Part shown: positions 1 through 9,864 of the stretch, one piece after another
Layout of the letters: every line of letters starts with the position of its first letter
Position numbering within the stretch: the first letter of the stretch is position 1
Origin: a virus
Lineage: Duplodnaviria; Heunggongvirae; Uroviricota; Caudoviricetes
IMG/VR virus record: IMGVR_UViG_2663763339_000002
Coordinates: 1 to 9,864 of that record
Length of the DNA stretch: 9,864 nucleotides
Strand: one strand, 5' to 3'
Program-made: the position numbers and the translations under genes
The notes under the pieces: model-generated
Told to the model about the DNA's origin: nothing
The model's input: only the letters and a program-made list of their open reading frames with translations
The model's database searches: none

Positions 1-291
1 TTAACGTCGTAACCGCTCCGGCTTCTTCCAGTGGTAAGTAATTTTTTCTTTCTCCTGGTACATCTGCACGCGGCGACGGTAGGCCAGCAACTCGAGAACT
101 CTGGTTCGTATATCGCGCATATCCACGCCGTTAAGCTCGATACCGTCACGGCGCATCACCTCAGCCACCACACGCGCGTAATTTTCTGCTATCACGCTGT
201 CTGGCTGCGTGGCCTCCTGTTTGCCTGCTGCTTGGCTGGCTCCGGTAATGCGGCGAATCATTTTGAGCATTTCGGCTTCGGTCATTGTCAT
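1..291 (-). CDS. Hypothetical protein, 96 aa, translationally coupled to the upstream small-terminase gene
   Basis: ATG at 289-291 overlaps the TGA of the upstream gene (ATGA junction on the minus strand); stop TAA at 1-3. No motif recognised. Confidence 0.5.
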   Translation of the reverse strand: MTMTEAEMLKMIRRITGASQAAGKQEATQPDSVIAENYARVVAEVMRRDGIELNGVDMRDIRTRVLELLAYRRRVQMYQEKEKITYHWKKPERLRR

Positions 292-773
292 GCCTGTTTT
301 GCATCCTCATTCACTGCGTCATTTTTTACCATCCGGCTGATAATCTGATTACACAAATCATCAATAATTGACTGCACTCTGTTTACTGCCATCGGTTTAA
401 GCCCTGCATCACGTGCCAGAATACTGGGGAGTTTTGCCAGTTCCTTGCTTACGATTTTTCCCCATATAGCCATCTCTTTTCGCGCATCATCGGCGGGTAT
501 GAGTTGCGCCGTTTCCTGTTCGAACTTAAGACGCTCACGCTCAGACTGATACCAGGCTTTGCGCTCATGTGCATCCATTTCGCCTTCTGCAACCGGCGTT
601 GGTAATGCCAGAAATGCCGACACAATATCTGCCACCCGGTAGAGCTTTAACTTGTCATGTCCTCCGGCGGGCTGGATGTTTTGCAGTCTTGCCGCCGCAG
701 TCTGACGACATATTCCCGCTATCGCCGCCAGTTGGTTAATGTTCAGCATCAGATTTTTCAGTTCTCGATCCAT
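288..773 (-). CDS. Small terminase subunit, lambda Nu1-like N-terminal winged-HTH (alternatively a packaging-redirection protein of the same fold)
   Basis: Start re-picked at ATG 771-773 (MDRELKNL...), preceded by GGAGGGGG; the ORF-track start at 830 has no RBS. N-terminus LNINQLAAIAGICRQTAAARLQNIQPAGGHDKLKLY parallels Nu1 (QLADIFGASIRTIQNWQEQGMPVLRGGGKGNEVLY), recalled from memory. Confidence 0.65.
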   Translation of the reverse strand: MDRELKNLMLNINQLAAIAGICRQTAAARLQNIQPAGGHDKLKLYRVADIVSAFLALPTPVAEGEMDAHERKAWYQSERERLKFEQETAQLIPADDARKEMAIWGKIVSKELAKLPSILARDAGLKPMAVNRVQSIIDDLCNQIISRMVKNDAVNEDAKQA

Positions 774-926
774 ACCCCCTCCGGAATGTTTTAAACATGC
801 ATCTTGCGAACAACTTTCAGAAGAGGTCAAAAAATGTGCTATATGTTGAACACAAAATAAGCAAAATTAACATACCAAAAATAAAATTCGTTTAAATTCA
901 ATACATTGAAAAGATGATGATGATGA

Positions 927-1007
927 ATGAAAATGCAAAAACTAGCCTTTTTCCGCGCCGCTCCCGCCCCGTGGTAAGGCCACTACACCGGGAGGACCCG
1001 TAAAAAA
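927..1007. repeat. Copy A of a conserved 81-bp intergenic element (copy B at 3451-3532)
   Basis: Direct alignment of the two copies at a constant offset of 2524 gives 4 mismatches in 81 positions. Contains nested dyad CTCCCG...GTGG-N5-CCAC...CGGGAG. Confidence 0.85.
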
Positions 1008-1023
1008 GGCGGCTATCGCCGCC
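1002..1023 (-). terminator. Intrinsic terminator after the protease-capsid gene
   Basis: Minus-strand RNA reads GGCGGC-GAUA-GCCGCC followed by UUUUUU (plus-strand A6 at 1002-1007), 8 nt after the stop at 1031-1033. Confidence 0.6.
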
Positions 1024-1030
1024 CTTGTTG

Positions 1031-2947
1031 TCATGCTCCACTCGATTTCAGTAGTCCACGATAATCGAGGGCCGCAACACCTGCATCTATGCGCACCTTC
1101 CAGGCGACACCATCAACAGTAAAGCCCTCCTGCTCCTCGAGATATGGCGTATCAATACCATCAAGATAAGCGACCTCTATCGTGTCCATCCCTTTCGCTG
1201 CGGCTACATACCACTCCTTGTTATTGTTCTTATCAAGACGTGGCTCAACAATAACTTCAGCCATATCTTTCACCACGTTAATGATGCCTGGGTTCTGATT
1301 GATAGTGCCCTCACCATCAACCGGAAAGAGTGATGACGATGACAGAATGGCGCGATGTGCGGCAGACTCCAGCGCGGCGGGGACCAGGACAAATGCGGGG
1401 GTAATATTCAGCGAATCACCGTTAGCGTCCTCCTGGAGGCGCATTAGCTTACGGGCTTCGTTAAGTCCCTCCATGTCCATATCCTTCGCAATAAGATTTT
1501 TATGATCGGCATGGAATAGCGCCTTACCATCCGTGAATTTGCCATTGCCGGTTAACAGGAGATACACCAGATTACCTACTGTTCTGGCGGCTGCACGCCC
1601 CATCGCCATGGGGATTGTAGTTAACTGGGTCAGGTCATCGTTAATAATGGCCTGGCGGGTAACAGAAAAAATATTCCCGTATGTGGCCAGCGCAATAGGT
1701 ACGCCCTTGTCACTGGTAGTAATGTATTTATATTCCGCGCCTTCCGGTACTTTATCCAGTTTTGAAAAACCATTCAGGCCAACGCGTTTTGCCTCGTGAA
1801 AGTTTGAAAGCGATCCGCTACGCGTCCACTTCTGGAACGTTTCGCCGCTGTCCTGCCAGCCTTTCAGCACTGATTTTTCAGCACCGCCAGCCAGAATATG
1901 AGAAAAATCACTGCTGCTGTGTGTAAAAGCTGCATTAACGACCTGCGAACGATTTAAAAAACCGCCAACACTGATACCACGATCGACCAGTGACGCCTGG
2001 GCCATTTCAAAAAGGCTCATCATCGCGTAAGGATTGCCACGCTCAGGACGCTCATACCCAAGACGGGAATAAAGGCCCTGGCGAATCGCATCGCCTGTTA
2101 TGTTCCCGTTTCCGGCATAAATATGAGACGGGATATTTTTATTTGTTGGTGTGTGGTTTTTACCCATTTCGTTAAGCAGACGTTCCCGGGCCATTTCCAG
2201 CGTACAGGATGCATCTTCAAGGCACGACATTTTGATCCCGTCGTACTGGTTGCCGAACACGCTAAAAATTTCTTTAATGCCGTTAATGCGCTCCTGGTCG
2301 CCTGTAATGGTGTTTTTTGCCTGTGATTTCGGCGGGGTAATCATTCCCTTAATGGTTTCCGGCATATGTAAAAAATCTCCTGTGCGTTTCGATTCAATTC
2401 GCGCCATTACTCTGACAGATGGCAACAATTCATCAGCAAAACCGTGCTTAAGGCATTCTTTCCCGTCCATCCAGGTTTCATCTTCCAGCATGGCGGCAAT
2501 TTCCTGTGCTGATTTGCCCGTTTTTCTGGCATAAGCAGGGATTAACACGGTTTCCACTTTATCCAGCAAATCAGCATAATCACGCATATCGCCAGCATTT
2601 CCGCCAGAGATACCCCACGGCTTATGGATCATCATCATGGCGTTCTCCGGCATAACAACGCGATCGCCTGCCATTGCGACGACCGAAGCCATTGAAGCCG
2701 CCACGCCATCGATATAAACCGTAATGTCTGCCGGATGATTCCGTAGCAGGTTATAGATGGCGATGCCTTCAAACACGTCACCGCCAGGCGAATGGATCCG
2801 TAGGTCGATATGTGAAACATCGCCAAGGGCTTTCAGATCTTCCGAGAACTGCTTCGCGGTAATACCGAAGCCGCCAATTTCTTCATAGATGGATATCTCC
2901 ACCGTTCCACGCACATCCGCCGCCTTAATGGAAAACCATGTTTTCAT
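1031..2947 (-). CDS. Prohead maturation protease (ClpP/S49-like) fused to a phage major capsid protein, 638 aa
   Basis: N-terminal about 180 aa carry ClpP-like motifs (IDLRIHSPGG, GVAASMASVVAMAGD, MMMIHKPWG). The C-terminal roughly 400 aa are assigned as major capsid protein by position and overall resemblance, not by a named motif. RBS AGGAG before ATG 2945-2947. Confidence 0.85.
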   Translation of the reverse strand: MKTWFSIKAADVRGTVEISIYEEIGGFGITAKQFSEDLKALGDVSHIDLRIHSPGGDVFEGIAIYNLLRNHPADITVYIDGVAASMASVVAMAGDRVVMPENAMMMIHKPWGISGGNAGDMRDYADLLDKVETVLIPAYARKTGKSAQEIAAMLEDETWMDGKECLKHGFADELLPSVRVMARIESKRTGDFLHMPETIKGMITPPKSQAKNTITGDQERINGIKEIFSVFGNQYDGIKMSCLEDASCTLEMARERLLNEMGKNHTPTNKNIPSHIYAGNGNITGDAIRQGLYSRLGYERPERGNPYAMMSLFEMAQASLVDRGISVGGFLNRSQVVNAAFTHSSSDFSHILAGGAEKSVLKGWQDSGETFQKWTRSGSLSNFHEAKRVGLNGFSKLDKVPEGAEYKYITTSDKGVPIALATYGNIFSVTRQAIINDDLTQLTTIPMAMGRAAARTVGNLVYLLLTGNGKFTDGKALFHADHKNLIAKDMDMEGLNEARKLMRLQEDANGDSLNITPAFVLVPAALESAAHRAILSSSSLFPVDGEGTINQNPGIINVVKDMAEVIVEPRLDKNNNKEWYVAAAKGMDTIEVAYLDGIDTPYLEEQEGFTVDGVAWKVRIDAGVAALDYRGLLKSSGA

Positions 2948-3138
2948 AGCCAGGCTCCTAACGTTGCCTTGTACCAGTATTCAACCGCGCTGCGTGTGAT
3001 TTGTCCTTTCGTGGGTACTGGCATACCCGGGTGATTCTCTTTGATGAACTGCTGATAGCGTTCGATCTTCTCCATCGTTCCGGTGTCTATGTGCACAGTG
3101 GCACTTTTACCCGGCTTTCTGGTGTTGTTCTCTGGCAT
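2944..3138 (-). CDS. Small hypothetical protein, 64 aa, translationally coupled to the protease-capsid gene
   Basis: Start re-picked at ATG 3136-3138 (MPENNTRK...) preceded by GGAGG; ATGA overlap with the downstream start. Possible beta-strand-then-helix (TVHID...MEKIERYQQF). Confidence 0.5.
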   Translation of the reverse strand: MPENNTRKPGKSATVHIDTGTMEKIERYQQFIKENHPGMPVPTKGQITRSAVEYWYKATLGAWL

Positions 3139-3239
3139 AAATCCGCCTCCGTTTTGATTAACGGGCATCATTATTGATCGATAAAAGTGGTAGATAAACA
3201 TATTTCTATCATAAAAATAGATTAATCAGATTCAGACGC

Positions 3240-3263
3240 AAAAAAAGCCGGAAAAAATCCGGC
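3240..3263 (-). terminator. Intrinsic terminator-like hairpin inside the leader of the capsid unit (candidate attenuator)
   Basis: Minus-strand RNA reads GCCGGA-UUUUU-UCCGGC followed by U7 (plus-strand A7 at 3240-3246); about 100 nt upstream of the 64-aa gene start. Confidence 0.5.
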
Positions 3264-3450
3264 ATAAATATCCCGCCATCTGAACACGTTTTGATACAGG
3301 CAACTCCACCAGGCAGGTGAAAAACTGATTTATTTATATATTTCAATTAATTGCAAACTGGTCTAATGACAGGAGAGAAAAAAAATTGTACAGGTGAAGA
3401 CGGAAATAATTTTTAATTATCAATAAATTATCGCACATGCTGCCGCCGCC

Positions 3451-3532
3451 ATGAAAATACAAAAATCAGCCTTTTTCCGCGCCGCTCCCGCCCCGTGGTA
3501 AGGCCACTCCACCGGGAGGACCCGTAAAAAAA
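3451..3532. repeat. Copy B of the conserved 81-bp intergenic element
   Basis: See copy A; same orientation, abuts the terminator after ssb. Confidence 0.85.
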
Positions 3533-3548
3533 CCGGGAAAATCCCGGC
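3526..3548 (-). terminator. Intrinsic terminator after the ssb-like gene
   Basis: Minus-strand RNA reads CCGGGA-UUU-UCCCGG followed by U7 (plus-strand A7 at 3526-3532), 17 nt after the stop at 3565-3567. Confidence 0.55.
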
Positions 3549-3564
3549 TTCTGTCACTCGTTGC

Positions 3565-3987
3565 TTAAAACGGTATGTTATCCCCGTACGGATCATCATT
3601 TCCCGCCTGTTGTTTTGCCCTGTTCAGTGCATCAGTGGCCTGCCCCTGTTGGCCTTTTTTGCCGCCCGGTCGCGCCGTTCGCGCACTGATTACGCTGTCT
3701 GCGATAACCTGCCAGCCCTGCCGCGTTTCGCCGTTCTGGCCTGTCCACTGGCTTACCTGCATGTTACCCGCCACGCTCACGAGTTCGCCTTTGTGGTGCT
3801 TTGCCAGTGCGTCGGCCTGTCTGCCAAACGCCAGGACGGATAACCACATCGTCGCCGTTCCGTCATCGGCCTGGCTGCACGGCAGGGGAACCGCCATACT
3901 CGCCATCGCCATTTGTGTCCCTTTGCTGGTGGTCTTTAACTGCGGGTCAGCCACCAGCCGCCCGTAAGCCGCTATCTGTGCTGTCAT
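3565..3987 (-). CDS. ssb: Single-stranded DNA-binding protein (SSB-like), 140 aa
   Basis: N-terminal OB-fold pattern (IAAYGRLVADPQLKTTSKG; WTGQNGETRQGWQVIADSV) and C-terminal acidic tip ending DDPYGDNIPF, compare bacterial SSB DDDIPF. ATGA overlap with the upstream gene. Confidence 0.7.
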   Translation of the reverse strand: MTAQIAAYGRLVADPQLKTTSKGTQMAMASMAVPLPCSQADDGTATMWLSVLAFGRQADALAKHHKGELVSVAGNMQVSQWTGQNGETRQGWQVIADSVISARTARPGGKKGQQGQATDALNRAKQQAGNDDPYGDNIPF

Positions 3988-4235
3988 GCTGTCTGCTCTC
4001 CGGTTTTAACGTTGATGGTTGTCACCAGTTCCGCTTCGGCAATCTCCCGTTCTGTCAGCGTGGCAAAGTTTGCCGCCGCCGTGGTCATGAATGCGCTTAT
4101 CAGTTCGGGATGTGCTTTCGCGTATCCTTCTCCGGCGTGGCGGTCTATCGTTCTGATTGCCACCTTTAAGGCGTGCTCTGTCATGTCTAACGCTTTATAT
4201 TTTGGTGCTGTCTTATCTCTGGTTTTTCTTGTCAT
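3984..4235 (-). CDS. Hypothetical protein, 83 aa
   Basis: Start re-picked at ATG 4233-4235 (MTRKTRDK...); the longer track ORF to 4367 would translate the iteron repeats. Coupled to ssb by ATGA. Confidence 0.5.
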   Translation of the reverse strand: MTRKTRDKTAPKYKALDMTEHALKVAIRTIDRHAGEGYAKAHPELISAFMTTAAANFATLTEREIAEAELVTTINVKTGEQTA

Positions 4236-4237
4236 GC

Positions 4238-4448
4238 GCCCACCTGTGCCCACTTTTTCTGCCCACTTTTCATGGTTTCCCACTTCGTCCCACCTGGGAT
4301 TTTGTGGTTTTATATCGTACTGTTTCATAAGTATTTTTTTAGTGCCCACTTTTTGGGATGTATACACGTGGGAAAGTGGGCGATTTTGTTAAATTCCAGT
4401 TAAATTACCCACTACTCCCACTTTTAACGCCCACTTTTTACAGTGGGT
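4238..4448. repeat. Iteron cluster with AT-rich spacer: candidate origin of replication
   Basis: At least 8 direct copies of (G)CCCAC(TTTT) (starts about 4238, 4248, 4261, 4279, 4289, 4344, 4408, 4417, 4429) and inverted copies (GTGGG near 4368, 4376, 4444), with an AT-rich stretch at 4296-4340. Lies immediately 3' of rep. Confidence 0.6.
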
Positions 4449-5844
4449 GAACATCATCCCCATCGACGCAAATCACGCCGTCTTTTTCCAGTTTGGCTAA
4501 CCATCGTTTAAGGTGTTTTGTGTCATATCCCAGCTTTTTCATGTCATCACGTAGCAGCGGGATCGTACATTTATCACCATGCTGTATACGCGACCGGATA
4601 CAACCCCATAAAGCCGTGTGATTTTCCGTCTTGTTCCCGGCCTCCTCTATGCGCTCCAGTTCAGCAGGGGCGCGGGGAACGTCAATCACCACCATGGACA
4701 CAATCTCTTCGCCATCTGTATCGGTGAACACCTCCACGCTTTTAAGATCGTATGCACTCTCTTTTGGCTCCTCTGCGTCCTTCATCTTCGTACACGCCGC
4801 CACCAGTGCTGTAACCTCTGAATTTTCCCGGCTGATTCGGTACTCTGCATCAAGCGCGGCACGGAATGCGCTGGAACCGCGCGCCCCCTTTGTTTCATCC
4901 TTGCCGGAATGGTGAACCACCAGCACCGTGGCCCCTGTGGCCTGCTTTATCGCGTCACACCCCTGGATAAATGCGCCCATATCGCGGGAATCATTTTCAT
5001 CATTTCCACCAAAGCAACGGGCCAGCGTGTCGATCACAATCAGCCGCACATTTTCGCCCGTTCTGCTCTTAACAAGTCCGGCAGTCCTGATAACCTGCTC
5101 CACATAGTCAGGCGATGCGGGGAAGACAGGCGCGTTAACGATGCACAAATCTGTAACCACCTTGTCATGGGTTATCTCCCACGCCTTAACGCGGCGTTTT
5201 ACGCCTATACTGCCTTCGCCAGCGATATAGATAACAGCGCCCTTACTTACCCTGCGGCCTCCCCATGCCATACCTGTGGCAACATGGCACGACCAGGAAA
5301 TAGCCAGGAACGATTTATAAGAACCGCTGGCCCCGTAGGTGCTGCATAATGACTCAGCCGGAATAAGCCCCTTAATTACGTAGCTTTGCTGCGCGTCGAA
5401 TCCCTCAGAACCCCATGAGATGGGAAGTGTGATTTTTCGCTTTCCACCATTCATGACCAGACTTTCCCCGCGTTCCCAGGTTTCTTTAAGCCGCGGTAGT
5501 TGCTCGCTCCAGTCCTCCAGCAGTTCGAAATTCTCTGAAAGTAACCGTGCTTCCTGGACACCTGCGATCGCCAGTTTGGTGGCAATGGTCAGCATCTGCA
5601 TATCGTCCAGGTTTCCGGCGCGTATGACCTTTGCTCTGTATCGTCCTTCATCAACAATCTGTAAATTGTCCAGTTCGCTTAACTGATAACGGCCCAGGTA
5701 AACCGGAGGGATGGGATCGCCTGCTTTTTGGGCCTGTGCAATCATGTAATGTTCTGCAAAGGAGTGAGCATTATCACCCGCAAAAATAACCGCCTCAGTG
5801 TGTTTATCTTTCGGTAACAGTTTTACGTTCGGTGCCAGTTTCAT
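4438..5844 (-). CDS. Replication initiator, RecA-like (AAA_25-type) ATPase, 468 aa
   Basis: P-loop-like YGASGSYKS, Walker B-like VRLIVIDTL, sensor TVLVVHHSGKD; basic C-terminal region may be a DNA-binding domain. ATG 5842-5844 overlaps the upstream stop. Iterons directly downstream. Confidence 0.8.
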   Translation of the reverse strand: MKLAPNVKLLPKDKHTEAVIFAGDNAHSFAEHYMIAQAQKAGDPIPPVYLGRYQLSELDNLQIVDEGRYRAKVIRAGNLDDMQMLTIATKLAIAGVQEARLLSENFELLEDWSEQLPRLKETWERGESLVMNGGKRKITLPISWGSEGFDAQQSYVIKGLIPAESLCSTYGASGSYKSFLAISWSCHVATGMAWGGRRVSKGAVIYIAGEGSIGVKRRVKAWEITHDKVVTDLCIVNAPVFPASPDYVEQVIRTAGLVKSRTGENVRLIVIDTLARCFGGNDENDSRDMGAFIQGCDAIKQATGATVLVVHHSGKDETKGARGSSAFRAALDAEYRISRENSEVTALVAACTKMKDAEEPKESAYDLKSVEVFTDTDGEEIVSMVVIDVPRAPAELERIEEAGNKTENHTALWGCIRSRIQHGDKCTIPLLRDDMKKLGYDTKHLKRWLAKLEKDGVICVDGDDVHPL

Positions 5845-6155
5845 TTTGCCTTTCCCCGTTCACGAATAATTTCACGTACTGCCTTAATGCGTTCCATACC
5901 TGTAACGCGCATGATTCTGTCGATGTCGCTTAAGTCCGCTGGTGGTGCTTTGCTTACCAGGGTGAATTCACTCTCAAAACGCATATGTGACGACACGCAG
6001 GGATGCGCATAACCTTCGCGGATATATGTCACCCGATAAGCACTCACCGTTTTTACCGTTATCTGACTTCCGTAGTTATCCCGGAAAATATCGCCGGGGC
6101 GGATTTCAGGCCGAGCGGGGCCGCTGGCAGTAAAGCCAGAATTTTTCTTTTTCAT
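5841..6155 (-). CDS. Hypothetical protein, 104 aa
   Basis: ATG 6153-6155 with RBS-like AGAGGAA; coupled to rep by ATGA. Confidence 0.6.
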   Translation of the reverse strand: MKKKNSGFTASGPARPEIRPGDIFRDNYGSQITVKTVSAYRVTYIREGYAHPCVSSHMRFESEFTLVSKAPPADLSDIDRIMRVTGMERIKAVREIIRERGKAK

Positions 6156-7886: not shown

Positions 7887-8093
7887 TTACGCAGCCGTTC
7901 CGCGCGCTTCTTCCTCGCGCTCTTTCAGCCAGGCCAGCACTTCATCTTCATACCAGCCAACACGACGCAGACCGATTTTGAAGCCTTTCGGGAATTTTCC
8001 GGCGTTGATCATGTCCTGTAGCGAACTGTCTGCCTTGATGCGCAGAATATTTTTTACTTCCTGACGGGTAAGTATTTTTCTGATTGTTTCCAC
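7887..8093 (-). CDS. alpA: AlpA-family phage transcriptional regulator, 68 aa
   Basis: GTG start at 8091-8093 (no in-frame ATG covers the HTH). FPKGFKIGLRRVGWYEDEVLAWL matches the AlpA signature recalled from E. coli CP4-57 AlpA (VGWIEAEIDEWL). Confidence 0.8.
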   Translation of the reverse strand: METIRKILTRQEVKNILRIKADSSLQDMINAGKFPKGFKIGLRRVGWYEDEVLAWLKEREEEARGTAA

Positions 8094-8622: not shown

Positions 8623-9864
8623 TTACACGGCACGGATACCCCTTTTACCACTGGCTATGGTCACTCCGGTAGCTGCGGCCTCTACAAATTCCCCCCACCA
8701 GCGCATAAGCACCACGCGCTTTTCCAGGTAGTTACTTCGGTTATATGCTCGCCTTACCTCGTTTGTGTCCACGTGTGCGAGTGCGGCCTCGATTACGTCC
8801 GGCTCGAATCCTTCCTCGTTCGCTGCTGTACTGAATATGGCGCGTAATCCGTGAGACACCAGCACACCAGCGTAACCCATCCGGCGCAATGCGGCGTTAG
8901 CGGTCTGGCTGCTCATTGGCAGCATCGGGTTTTTAAGGCTGGGAAAAACGTGTTCCCTGTGTGCGCTGATTGGCTTCATGGTTTCCAGTACAGCCATAGC
9001 CTGACCGCAAAGGGGGATCACGTGGTCACGGCGCATCTTCATGCGTCCGGCTGGAATCGTCCATGTTTCGGCATCGAGATCTATTTCTTCCCAGCGTGCG
9101 GCGGCTGCTTCGGCTGGGCGTGCTACGGTCAGCAGTTGCCACTCAATCAGCAATCTGGTTTGCCGTTCTATGCTGGCGACCGATAAATCGTGCATTAGCT
9201 GCGGTAGCTGTTCCGGTCGGATGGTTGGCATGTGCTTTTTGGTGGGTGAGGGGAATGCCTTGCGGACGTTCGCGGCGGTGTTGATGTCAATCAGCCCACT
9301 GTTGGCAGCAAAATCCATCACTTCATTGATGCGTTGTAAAACGCGTTTCAGGGTTTCCAGGTTGCCGCGTGCTTTAATGGGTGTGAGTATCTCAACAAAG
9401 CGGCGAGCTGTGAGGGTATCTATTGGCGTGTTTCCGATGTACGGGAATACGTATTTTTCCAGGGATCGCCAGATATCCTTAATCGTGTTGTAAGCCAGAT
9501 TCTGGCCTTTTTTCATCTCGTACCAGTCCGAGGCAACTTTTTCGAACGTGTTGCCCTTTTTCCGACTCTCTGCTTCACGTTTCCGGCGTTCGTGGTCCTG
9601 TGGGTCAACTCCCTTCGCTATGAGTGACCTGTATTCATTCCGTCGTTCTCTGGCATCGGACAGGGAAACATCATTCAGCGATCCGAGGCTGATGATAGTC
9701 CGTTTTTTATCTGCCGGGCGGTAGTACGTAAAACGCCAGATTTTTGATCCGGAGGGTTTCACCAGAAGAAATAATCCTCCGCCATCCTGCAGGGTGTATT
9801 CCTTTTCCCCTGGTCGTGCGTTTTTGATCTCCGTAATAGTTAGTGGGGTGGTTTTTCGTGCCAT
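8623..9864 (-). CDS. int: Tyrosine site-specific integrase, P4 / CP4-57 IntA family, 413 aa
   Basis: N-terminus MARKTTPLTITEIKNARPGEKEYTLQDGGGLFLLVKPSGSKIWRFTYY is the typical arm-binding domain of P4-type integrases; catalytic-region motifs (TVARP, HGLRAIF, RAYNRSNY). ATG is the last 3 nt of the window. Confidence 0.9.
   Translation of the reverse strand: MARKTTPLTITEIKNARPGEKEYTLQDGGGLFLLVKPSGSKIWRFTYYRPADKKRTIISLGSLNDVSLSDARERRNEYRSLIAKGVDPQDHERRKREAESRKKGNTFEKVASDWYEMKKGQNLAYNTIKDIWRSLEKYVFPYIGNTPIDTLTARRFVEILTPIKARGNLETLKRVLQRINEVMDFAANSGLIDINTAANVRKAFPSPTKKHMPTIRPEQLPQLMHDLSVASIERQTRLLIEWQLLTVARPAEAAAARWEEIDLDAETWTIPAGRMKMRRDHVIPLCGQAMAVLETMKPISAHREHVFPSLKNPMLPMSSQTANAALRRMGYAGVLVSHGLRAIFSTAANEEGFEPDVIEAALAHVDTNEVRRAYNRSNYLEKRVVLMRWWGEFVEAAATGVTIASGKRGIRAV

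Follow-up and report, generated by a model that had tools for sequence, protein, structure and literature searches.

[quoted passage not shown] Considered as a whole, the results are best explained by an SSB that would serve replication of the satellite as a generic SSB recruiting the host replisome, a reading that we hold to be probable. The product is regarded as ordinary because its tail retains every residue known to matter in partner binding. The finding is also known in kind, since the protein is present in RefSeq and earlier work had already assigned SSB genes of Gram-negative PICIs to a replication category, where they sit together with mapped origins (PMC10111431). As a discovery the gene carries little weight, being annotated as an SSB in RefSeq, detected in over a quarter of the complete genomes of E. 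coli, and belonging to a gene class known from PICI replication modules.

Identification and predicted fold of the island SSB

The ssb open reading frame is intact, with an ATG start preceded 8 nt upstream by the Shine-Dalgarno sequence GGAGAG, and encodes 140 amino acids followed by a stop codon. The translation, which begins with MTAQIAAYGRLVADPQ and ends with QQAGNDDPYGDNIPF, is identical to RefSeq WP_000126638.1 according to the ORF list and the PGAP annotation of E. coli RM8082. The product matched Pfam PF00436 (SSB; E 4.1e-16) with 59.4 bits, where the cut-off is 26, and NCBIfam TIGR00621 with 61.3 bits, where it is 53.95; both matches are far above chance. Further matches were PHROG 44 'single strand DNA binding protein' (E 5.7e-40) and, at E <= 0.01, 27 different SSBs of solved structure in the PDB. 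The initial annotation had proposed an SSB ending in DDPYGDNIPF at this position; the exact tail and family profiles above cut-off confirm it, with the gene lying on the minus strand. A literature search for experimental work on this protein or on any PICI SSB found none. Regarding base composition, ssb has a GC content of 0.60 and a GC3 of 0.67, compared with a GC content of 0.50 for the window and GC3 values of 0.47-0.62 for the other island genes measured. The gene is thus a compositional outlier, with the highest GC3 among the island genes measured, which hints at a separate history.

The AlphaFold2 model, built from 104 homologues with a mean pLDDT of 76, predicts an OB-fold ssDNA-binding domain at residues 1-103 (3679..3987, minus strand), an assignment shared by Foldseek. 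The pLDDT is 83-93 per 10-residue block over residues 1-100, and the strands (2-11, 16-19, 25-36, 44-54, 69-82, and 88-101) together with the helix at 55-62 reproduce the classic pattern of a five-stranded barrel with a capping helix. When the model was compared with the PDB using Foldseek, the best 50 matches were all bacterial SSBs, with a TM(target) of 0.65-0.78. Among them are SsbA from S. aureus (7ym1_B, with E 1.3e-9 and a TM on target of 0.76) and from B. subtilis (6bhw), as well as the K. pneumoniae SSB (7f2n). The OB fold, on which the initial annotation had staked its claim, is therefore predicted with confidence. Most of the chain from residue 104 to the C-terminus has a pLDDT below 50, including positions 104-121 and 128-133, and the helix modelled at 117-127 is of low confidence. 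Residues 104-130 (3598..3678, minus strand) form a short, basic linker with a net charge of +4 that is predicted to be disordered.

For comparison purposes we used the chromosomal SSB of E. coli (1EQQ/1EYG), whose query sequence was confirmed as a full-length match to 1EQQ. Both proteins combine a single OB fold with a disordered linker and have Ile-Pro-Phe at the end of an acidic tip. They differ in length (178 aa in E. coli against 140 aa in the island) and share 26% identity over 100 aa, and the linker of the E. coli protein is long and rich in Gly, Gln, and Pro, in contrast to that of the island SSB. Of the four aromatic residues of E. coli SSB that stack on ssDNA (W40, W54, F60, and W88), three are present in the island protein: W48, F54, and W81 correspond to W54, F60, and W88 in the alignment, with conservation of 90% or more across the island SSB family. 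Trp40 is replaced by Gln39, and His55 of the E. coli protein by Leu49. On the basis of family profile, modelled OB fold, aromatic residues, and tail, the predicted product is a genuine SSB of the bacterial SSB family.

The C-terminal tip

The tip DDPYGDNIPF (3568..3597, minus strand) comprises residues 131-140 of the translation and has a net charge of -3. The last nine residues read DPYGDNIPF in the island protein and MDFDDDIPF in the host SSB. Compared with the host hexapeptide DDDIPF, the island tip (GDNIPF) shows two changes, Asp to Gly at -6 and Asp to Asn at -4, whereas the aromatic residue at -7 (Tyr in YGDNIPF, Phe in the host FDDDIPF), Asp(-5), and Ile-Pro-Phe are kept. The general layout of an SSB tail is thus present, with a disordered linker, an acidic tip, and a hydrophobic-Pro-Phe ending, in a form that is not the exact host hexapeptide. 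In characterized SSB docking, the side chain and carboxylate of the terminal Phe occupy a hydrophobic pocket, binding depends on the penultimate Pro, as the ssb113 mutation P176S demonstrates, and the Ile and flanking acidic residues are also involved, with the Asp residues touching a basic ridge (PMC3159472, PMC3632105).

Conservation at the tip was assessed among 104 close homologues, 76-98% identical, which are cluster representatives and not independent events. F140 (-1) and D136 (-5) were invariant in all 104, I138 was found in 99, P139 in 101, and G135 in 86, and position 134 was Tyr, Phe, or Trp throughout. By contrast, the column of N137 (-4) contained N in 50 homologues, D in 21, G in 20, E in 11, and S in 2; its entropy of 1.88 bits was the second highest of the whole SSB. 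Clustering a wider clade of short SSBs at 50% gave a sample of 150 representatives, of which only 4 had DDDIPF at the end and 22 had IPF. In this clade, 66 tails combined an acidic residue at -5 with Phe at the end, and their residue at -4 was E in 19, P in 13, D in 12, A in 9, G in 3, N in 2, and S in 2. Across the wider clade, Phe predominates at -7, with Tyr in some tails, and Asp or Asn at -6; position -5 is Asp, -4 is variable, and -3 is Ile or Leu, and the terminal Phe usually follows a Pro. Satellites of other Enterobacterales encode more divergent tails, such as ...PPFDDEAPF, ...PLYDDDF, ...PFNDEPEF, and ...QHEDDF.

Judged by these alignments, the tip is non-canonical only with respect to the host hexapeptide, is typical in its own family, and is nearer to the host motif than the tips of many relatives. 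The initial annotation was right that the tail departs from DDDIPF, but the departure is nothing special: the docking residues are kept and -4 is highly variable in the family. Both -6 and -4 vary freely in this SSB family; the Gly and Asn found there are most probably near-neutral or serve fine-tuning and do not switch the partner, and the pattern of conservation does not favour the suggestion that the tail changes partner specificity. With two acidic residues in its last nine positions, where the host has four, the island tip could bind basic-ridge sites more weakly.

Variation also reaches the penultimate residue in related islands. The SSB of an E. coli O157:H7 island located between phoQ and roxA (locus L002, 8919-9329) ends in DDPYGDDISF, with Ser in place of the penultimate Pro, and a few further SSB alleles in the databases end in ISF or LSF. 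The same change, Pro176 to Ser, defines E. coli ssb113, a conditionally lethal mutation of the host gene that compromises the binding of partners (PMC3159472, PMC3632105). What is a mutant in the host is a standing polymorphism in the satellite SSB family, although the allele in the window keeps the Pro. Because the natural ISF alleles share the ssb113 change, binding to host partners may not be strictly required. Satellite SSB tips, with their standing Pro-to-Ser alleles, thus amount to a natural mutational scan of the SSB C-terminus, which shows the residues that are kept (Asp-x-Ile-Pro-Phe and the aromatic at -7) against those that vary.

The island as a PICI-type satellite

The window and the E. 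coli RM8082 chromosome share 99.98% identity, with two 1-base indels between them (window 9740-9864 and ~6270; RM8082 locus L001, 18441-18444 and 14948-14972). In RM8082 these indels frameshift int and a small ORF, both of which are intact in the window. The element in RM8082 is an island of ~10.5 kb, with tRNA-Pro/yejM on one side and yejO on the other, and is flanked by the 16-bp direct repeat AACGTGTAGCTAAAAA, whose copies lie 10.46 kb apart, beside tRNA-Pro. The integrase, the direct repeats, and the tRNA-Pro site in RM8082 agree with the earlier description of the SSB as island-encoded.

All of the genes described here lie on the minus strand. The integrase (8623-9864; NF007246, 560 bits) is followed by an AlpA-type regulator (7887-8093; Pfam), an Icd-like gene and small ORFs, and then the DUF4222 gene and the remainder of the replication module described below. 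Past the terminator of ssb, the order continues with an AT-rich gap, orf64, a gene encoding a ClpP-protease/major-capsid fusion (1031-2947), a DUF1441 small terminase gene (terS), and orf96. The marks by which a PICI can be recognized were found in this arrangement: a size in the range of ~10-15 kb, a terminal tyrosine integrase, att repeats, an AlpA-type regulator, and an initiator of its own followed by an iteron origin around an AT-rich region (a feature taken from PMC6092414). Genes for hijacking (terS and the capsid homologue) are present, and most structural and lysis genes are absent; portal, terL, connector, HNH, tail, and lysis genes were not found in the island using Pfam, NCBIfam, annotation, and PHROG. 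By these testable features of its gene content, the island is classified as a Gram-negative PICI-type phage satellite, and its gene plan agrees with the Gram-negative PICI plan (PMC6092414). Membership in the capsid-forming group (cf-PICI) was considered and rejected, because portal, terL, and connector genes, along with HNH genes, are absent from the island.

When compared to known satellites, the island shares int, the AlpA-type regulator, the initiator, and an iteron origin 3' of rep with PICIs of the EcCICFT073 type (PMC6092414), and it resembles Gram-negative PICIs in having an SSB gene followed by phage-derived capsid and terS genes (PMC10111431, PMC6092414). It differs from the EcCICFT073 type in its ClpP-protease/capsid fusion, its DUF1441 terS, and its AAA_25 initiator, which has no primase domain. 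The DUF4222-RepA-orf-SSB block recurs in the O157:H7 island, where its SSB is 70% identical to that of the window; there, the block is followed by separate capsid and decoration genes, as in EcCICFT073. Regarding the helper, the capsid fusion and terS of the island (window 288-2947) are 56% and 69% identical at the amino acid level to their counterparts in phage mEp460 (Gifsy-2/cdtI-type head genes). This kinship, in an island without portal or terL, indicates that the helper is likely a lambdoid phage of the mEp460 head type.

Organization of the replication module

The replication genes are arranged on the minus strand as DUF4222, the RepA/AAA_25 helicase, the iteron origin, orf83, and ssb, with overlapping or short junctions. 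The rep-ori-orf-ssb order reported in the initial annotation was recovered here, with every gene on the minus strand and the repeats clustered between the RepA-type gene and orf83. The DUF4222 gene (5841..6155; Pfam DUF4222, E 8.4e-18) has a stop codon that overlaps the start of rep, which places it directly upstream of rep in one co-directional run, and the DUF4222-rep order recurs in the O157:H7 island. The rep gene (4438..5844, minus strand) encodes a RepA-family initiator/helicase with an AAA_25 domain at residues 146-317 (Pfam, E 3.4e-43; PHROG 2850) and, according to Pfam, without a primase domain.

Directly 3' of the rep stop codon lies a putative replication origin (4238..4437, no strand assigned) composed of at least nine RGTGGG iterons. 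The exact heptamer AAGTGGG occurs seven times on the two strands of the 9864-bp window, all within 4249-4436 (188 bp), compared with an expectation of ~1.19 in the whole window; a count of seven was reached in 0 of 200 shuffles. The figure of at least nine iterons includes near-copies; one of the iterons is inverted, and two groups flank AT-rich spacers. At the aligned sites, the O157:H7 island (L002, 9578-9780) has GTGAG or GCGAG where the window has GTGGG, with AAGTGAG as the counterpart of AAGTGGG, the G to A change being identical at eight positions, including the inverted copy. The origin spacer is otherwise well conserved between the two islands, and their RepA proteins are 63% identical. 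The same change across the iteron copies is as expected of iterons that co-evolve with their initiator, and the layout fits origins mapped in E. coli PICIs (PMC6092414). From this arrangement we infer that 4238-4437 acts as a replication origin. The GTGGG and GTGAG islands could serve as a clean natural test pair for initiator-iteron specificity.

The N-terminal region of RepA (residues 1-139; ~130-139 aa) shares 43-51% identity with the N-terminal parts of initiators from other species, found at L003 3629-4048, L014 2822-3217, and L025 3831-4184. In the two of these loci that were scanned for domains, L003 (DUF927) and L025 (D5/DUF5906), the helicase domain is unrelated to AAA_25. Shared N-termini on unrelated helicase types suggest that this region is a portable, swappable origin-recognition domain that would bind the iterons.

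Between the origin and ssb, orf83 (3984..4235, minus strand) encodes a protein of 83 aa belonging to PHROG 1231. Its stop codon overlaps the ssb start (ATGA), which implies translational coupling of the two genes. The 178 homologues of orf83 come nearly all from Escherichia or Shigella and are all annotated as 'hypothetical'. Its AlphaFold2 model is helical, with a pLDDT of 68.5; Pfam and NCBIfam searches returned no match, and a Foldseek search of the model against the PDB returned no meaningful one. In one database entry (P0001, 220 aa), orf83 is fused in frame with the SSB. A scan of 3100-4600 for sigma-70 promoters found none.

Distribution of ssb and its proposed role

By megablast, ssb matched 1529 of the 5426 complete E. 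coli genomes, where it is annotated as 'single-stranded DNA-binding protein'. The match covered at least 80% of the gene in 973 genomes, with up to six copies per genome, and the ORF is intact in most of these 973. Likewise, in 39 loci from other Enterobacterales, a large initiator gene is usually found a few hundred bp upstream of the SSB gene; the genera represented include Escherichia, Klebsiella, Enterobacter, Leclercia, Buttiauxella, Citrobacter, Edwardsiella, and Rosenbergiella, among others. The initiators of the ten loci scanned with Pfam contained DUF927 or D5_N/DUF5906/Pox_D5 domains, with or without Zn-ribbon/Toprim primase domains, so that related SSBs pair with three unrelated types of initiator when the AAA_25 protein of the window is included. 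Across these ten loci, no one-to-one relation was observed between the type of tail and the type of initiator. In E. coli the ORF that overlaps the ssb start is orf83, and in other lineages it is PerC-like, ProQ/FinO-like, or unknown; the idea of a conserved small partner gene before ssb was rejected on this account. An SSB that travels with unrelated initiators and neighbours best fits a generic role in coating ssDNA and recruiting the replisome. The distribution is thus best explained if satellite replicons carry the SSB as a generic component and not as the dedicated partner of one island protein.

Under this generic role, the island would be switched on by the helper phage, after which RepA, following the precedent of other PICIs, would bind the iterons and open the AT-rich spacer. 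The island SSB, made together with the orf83 product through translational coupling, would coat the exposed single strands via its OB fold, a step for which the fold and the stacking aromatics were shown computationally. Its flexible tail may offer the ...D-x-I-P-F motif to sites with a hydrophobic pocket and a basic ridge, such as those of DnaG primase, Pol III chi, and PriA. Such contacts would let a helicase that lacks a primase domain build a host replisome, and surplus SSB would cover the surge of ssDNA while island and helper replicate together.

Alternatively, the tail DDPYGDxIPF could be tuned to an island protein (the RepA helicase, or the product of orf83 or DUF4222) and not to host proteins. 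The SSB of phage HK620 provides a precedent, as its NDYPPF tail recruits the phage's own Sak4 annealase and so shows that a variant tail can function (PMC5928155). Like the island SSB, it belongs to an E. coli mobile element, has an OB fold, and carries a non-DDDIPF tail ending in Pro-Phe, but its gene has a recombinase as a neighbour, whereas the island SSB ends in Ile-Pro-Phe and has replication genes as neighbours, with no annealase found. The coupling of ssb to orf83, the helicase without a primase domain, and the good conservation of Pro(-8), the aromatic at -7, and Gly(-6) in the E. coli family would also suit a cognate partner. Nevertheless, the E. albertii locus L003 has the same type of tail (...DDPYEDEIPF) with a DUF927 initiator and no detected orf83 homologue. 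The pairing of the SSB family with three unrelated initiator families and varied upstream small ORFs speaks against such tuning as well, and the best-conserved residues of the tip are those that dock host partners. We therefore consider a dedicated island partner unlikely.

A role in interference appears decidedly unlikely. The satellite SSB would here outcompete the SSB of host or helper, or titrate SSB-interacting proteins and slow the helper, or else evade or trigger a defence that senses SSBs, and the variability at -4 and -6 and the ISF alleles would be marks of an arms race. Interference with helpers is characteristic of PICIs (PMC6092414), only one column of the SSB is more variable than -4, Pro-to-Ser alleles exist, and the GC3 of ssb, at the top of the island genes measured, hints at a separate history. 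However, ssb sits inside the replication operon and not among interference or accessory genes. Position -4 is also variable in the wider clade, which is not restricted to satellites, and this fits weak constraint better than positive selection. A related proposal, which we regard as very improbable, is that -4, -6, and occasionally the penultimate Pro are under diversifying selection in satellite SSB tips. If this were true, the tip would set which SSB-interacting proteins of host or helper are recruited or starved, or might help the island to evade defence systems that sense foreign SSBs, and GDNIPF would be one functional state of an arms-race polymorphism and not the result of neutral drift. 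Should the tail polymorphism alter the choice of partner, it would bear on the competition between satellite and helper for the host replisome.

Finally, it is highly doubtful that ssb is a dispensable passenger that hitch-hiked with a phage replication module while the host SSB suffices: the rep-ori of EcCICFT073 alone drives plasmid replication in E. coli (PMC6092414), and truncated or fused ssb alleles occur in databases, but most of the 973 genomes with at least 80% coverage have an intact ORF, the OB core and tip are strongly conserved, and the place of ssb after diverse initiators is conserved across many genera. A reading of ssb as a decayed remnant was rejected on the same intact ORF and conserved core and tip.

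The region between the replication and packaging genes

The replication operon is closed by an intrinsic-terminator-like hairpin with a U7 tract (3526..3552, minus strand), located 13 nt after the ssb stop codon. RNA folding of 3570-3440 (minus strand) gave a CCGGGA/UCCCGG stem followed by UUUUUUU, though a simple terminator scanner did not list this hairpin. A second terminator-like hairpin at 3237-3263 (minus strand), formed by GCCGGATTTTTTCCGGC and a T-run, was observed just upstream of orf64 and the late capsid genes. With both hairpins, two terminators would separate the replication and packaging modules, which hints that the late genes are switched on via antitermination or a helper-dependent promoter. 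An Rfam scan of the whole window gave no match at E <= 0.1, and no known RNA therefore lies between ssb and the late genes.

The island also contains an 81-bp direct repeat, 95% identical between its two copies. One copy (3451-3531) lies just downstream of the ssb terminator, while the other (927-1007) lies between the stop codon of the capsid fusion and terS. The same element occurs in lambdoid phages in the gap between the lysis genes and terS, namely in mEp460 (~118-190 bp before terS), in Stx2 phages, and in HannyBb, and window positions 343-1001 are collinear with terS of mEp460 and its upstream 192 bp. Given the place of the element before phage terS, the terS-proximal copy looks like part of a phage-type cos/packaging region. 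The isolated copy at 3451-3531 could be a scar of capture or a second signal.
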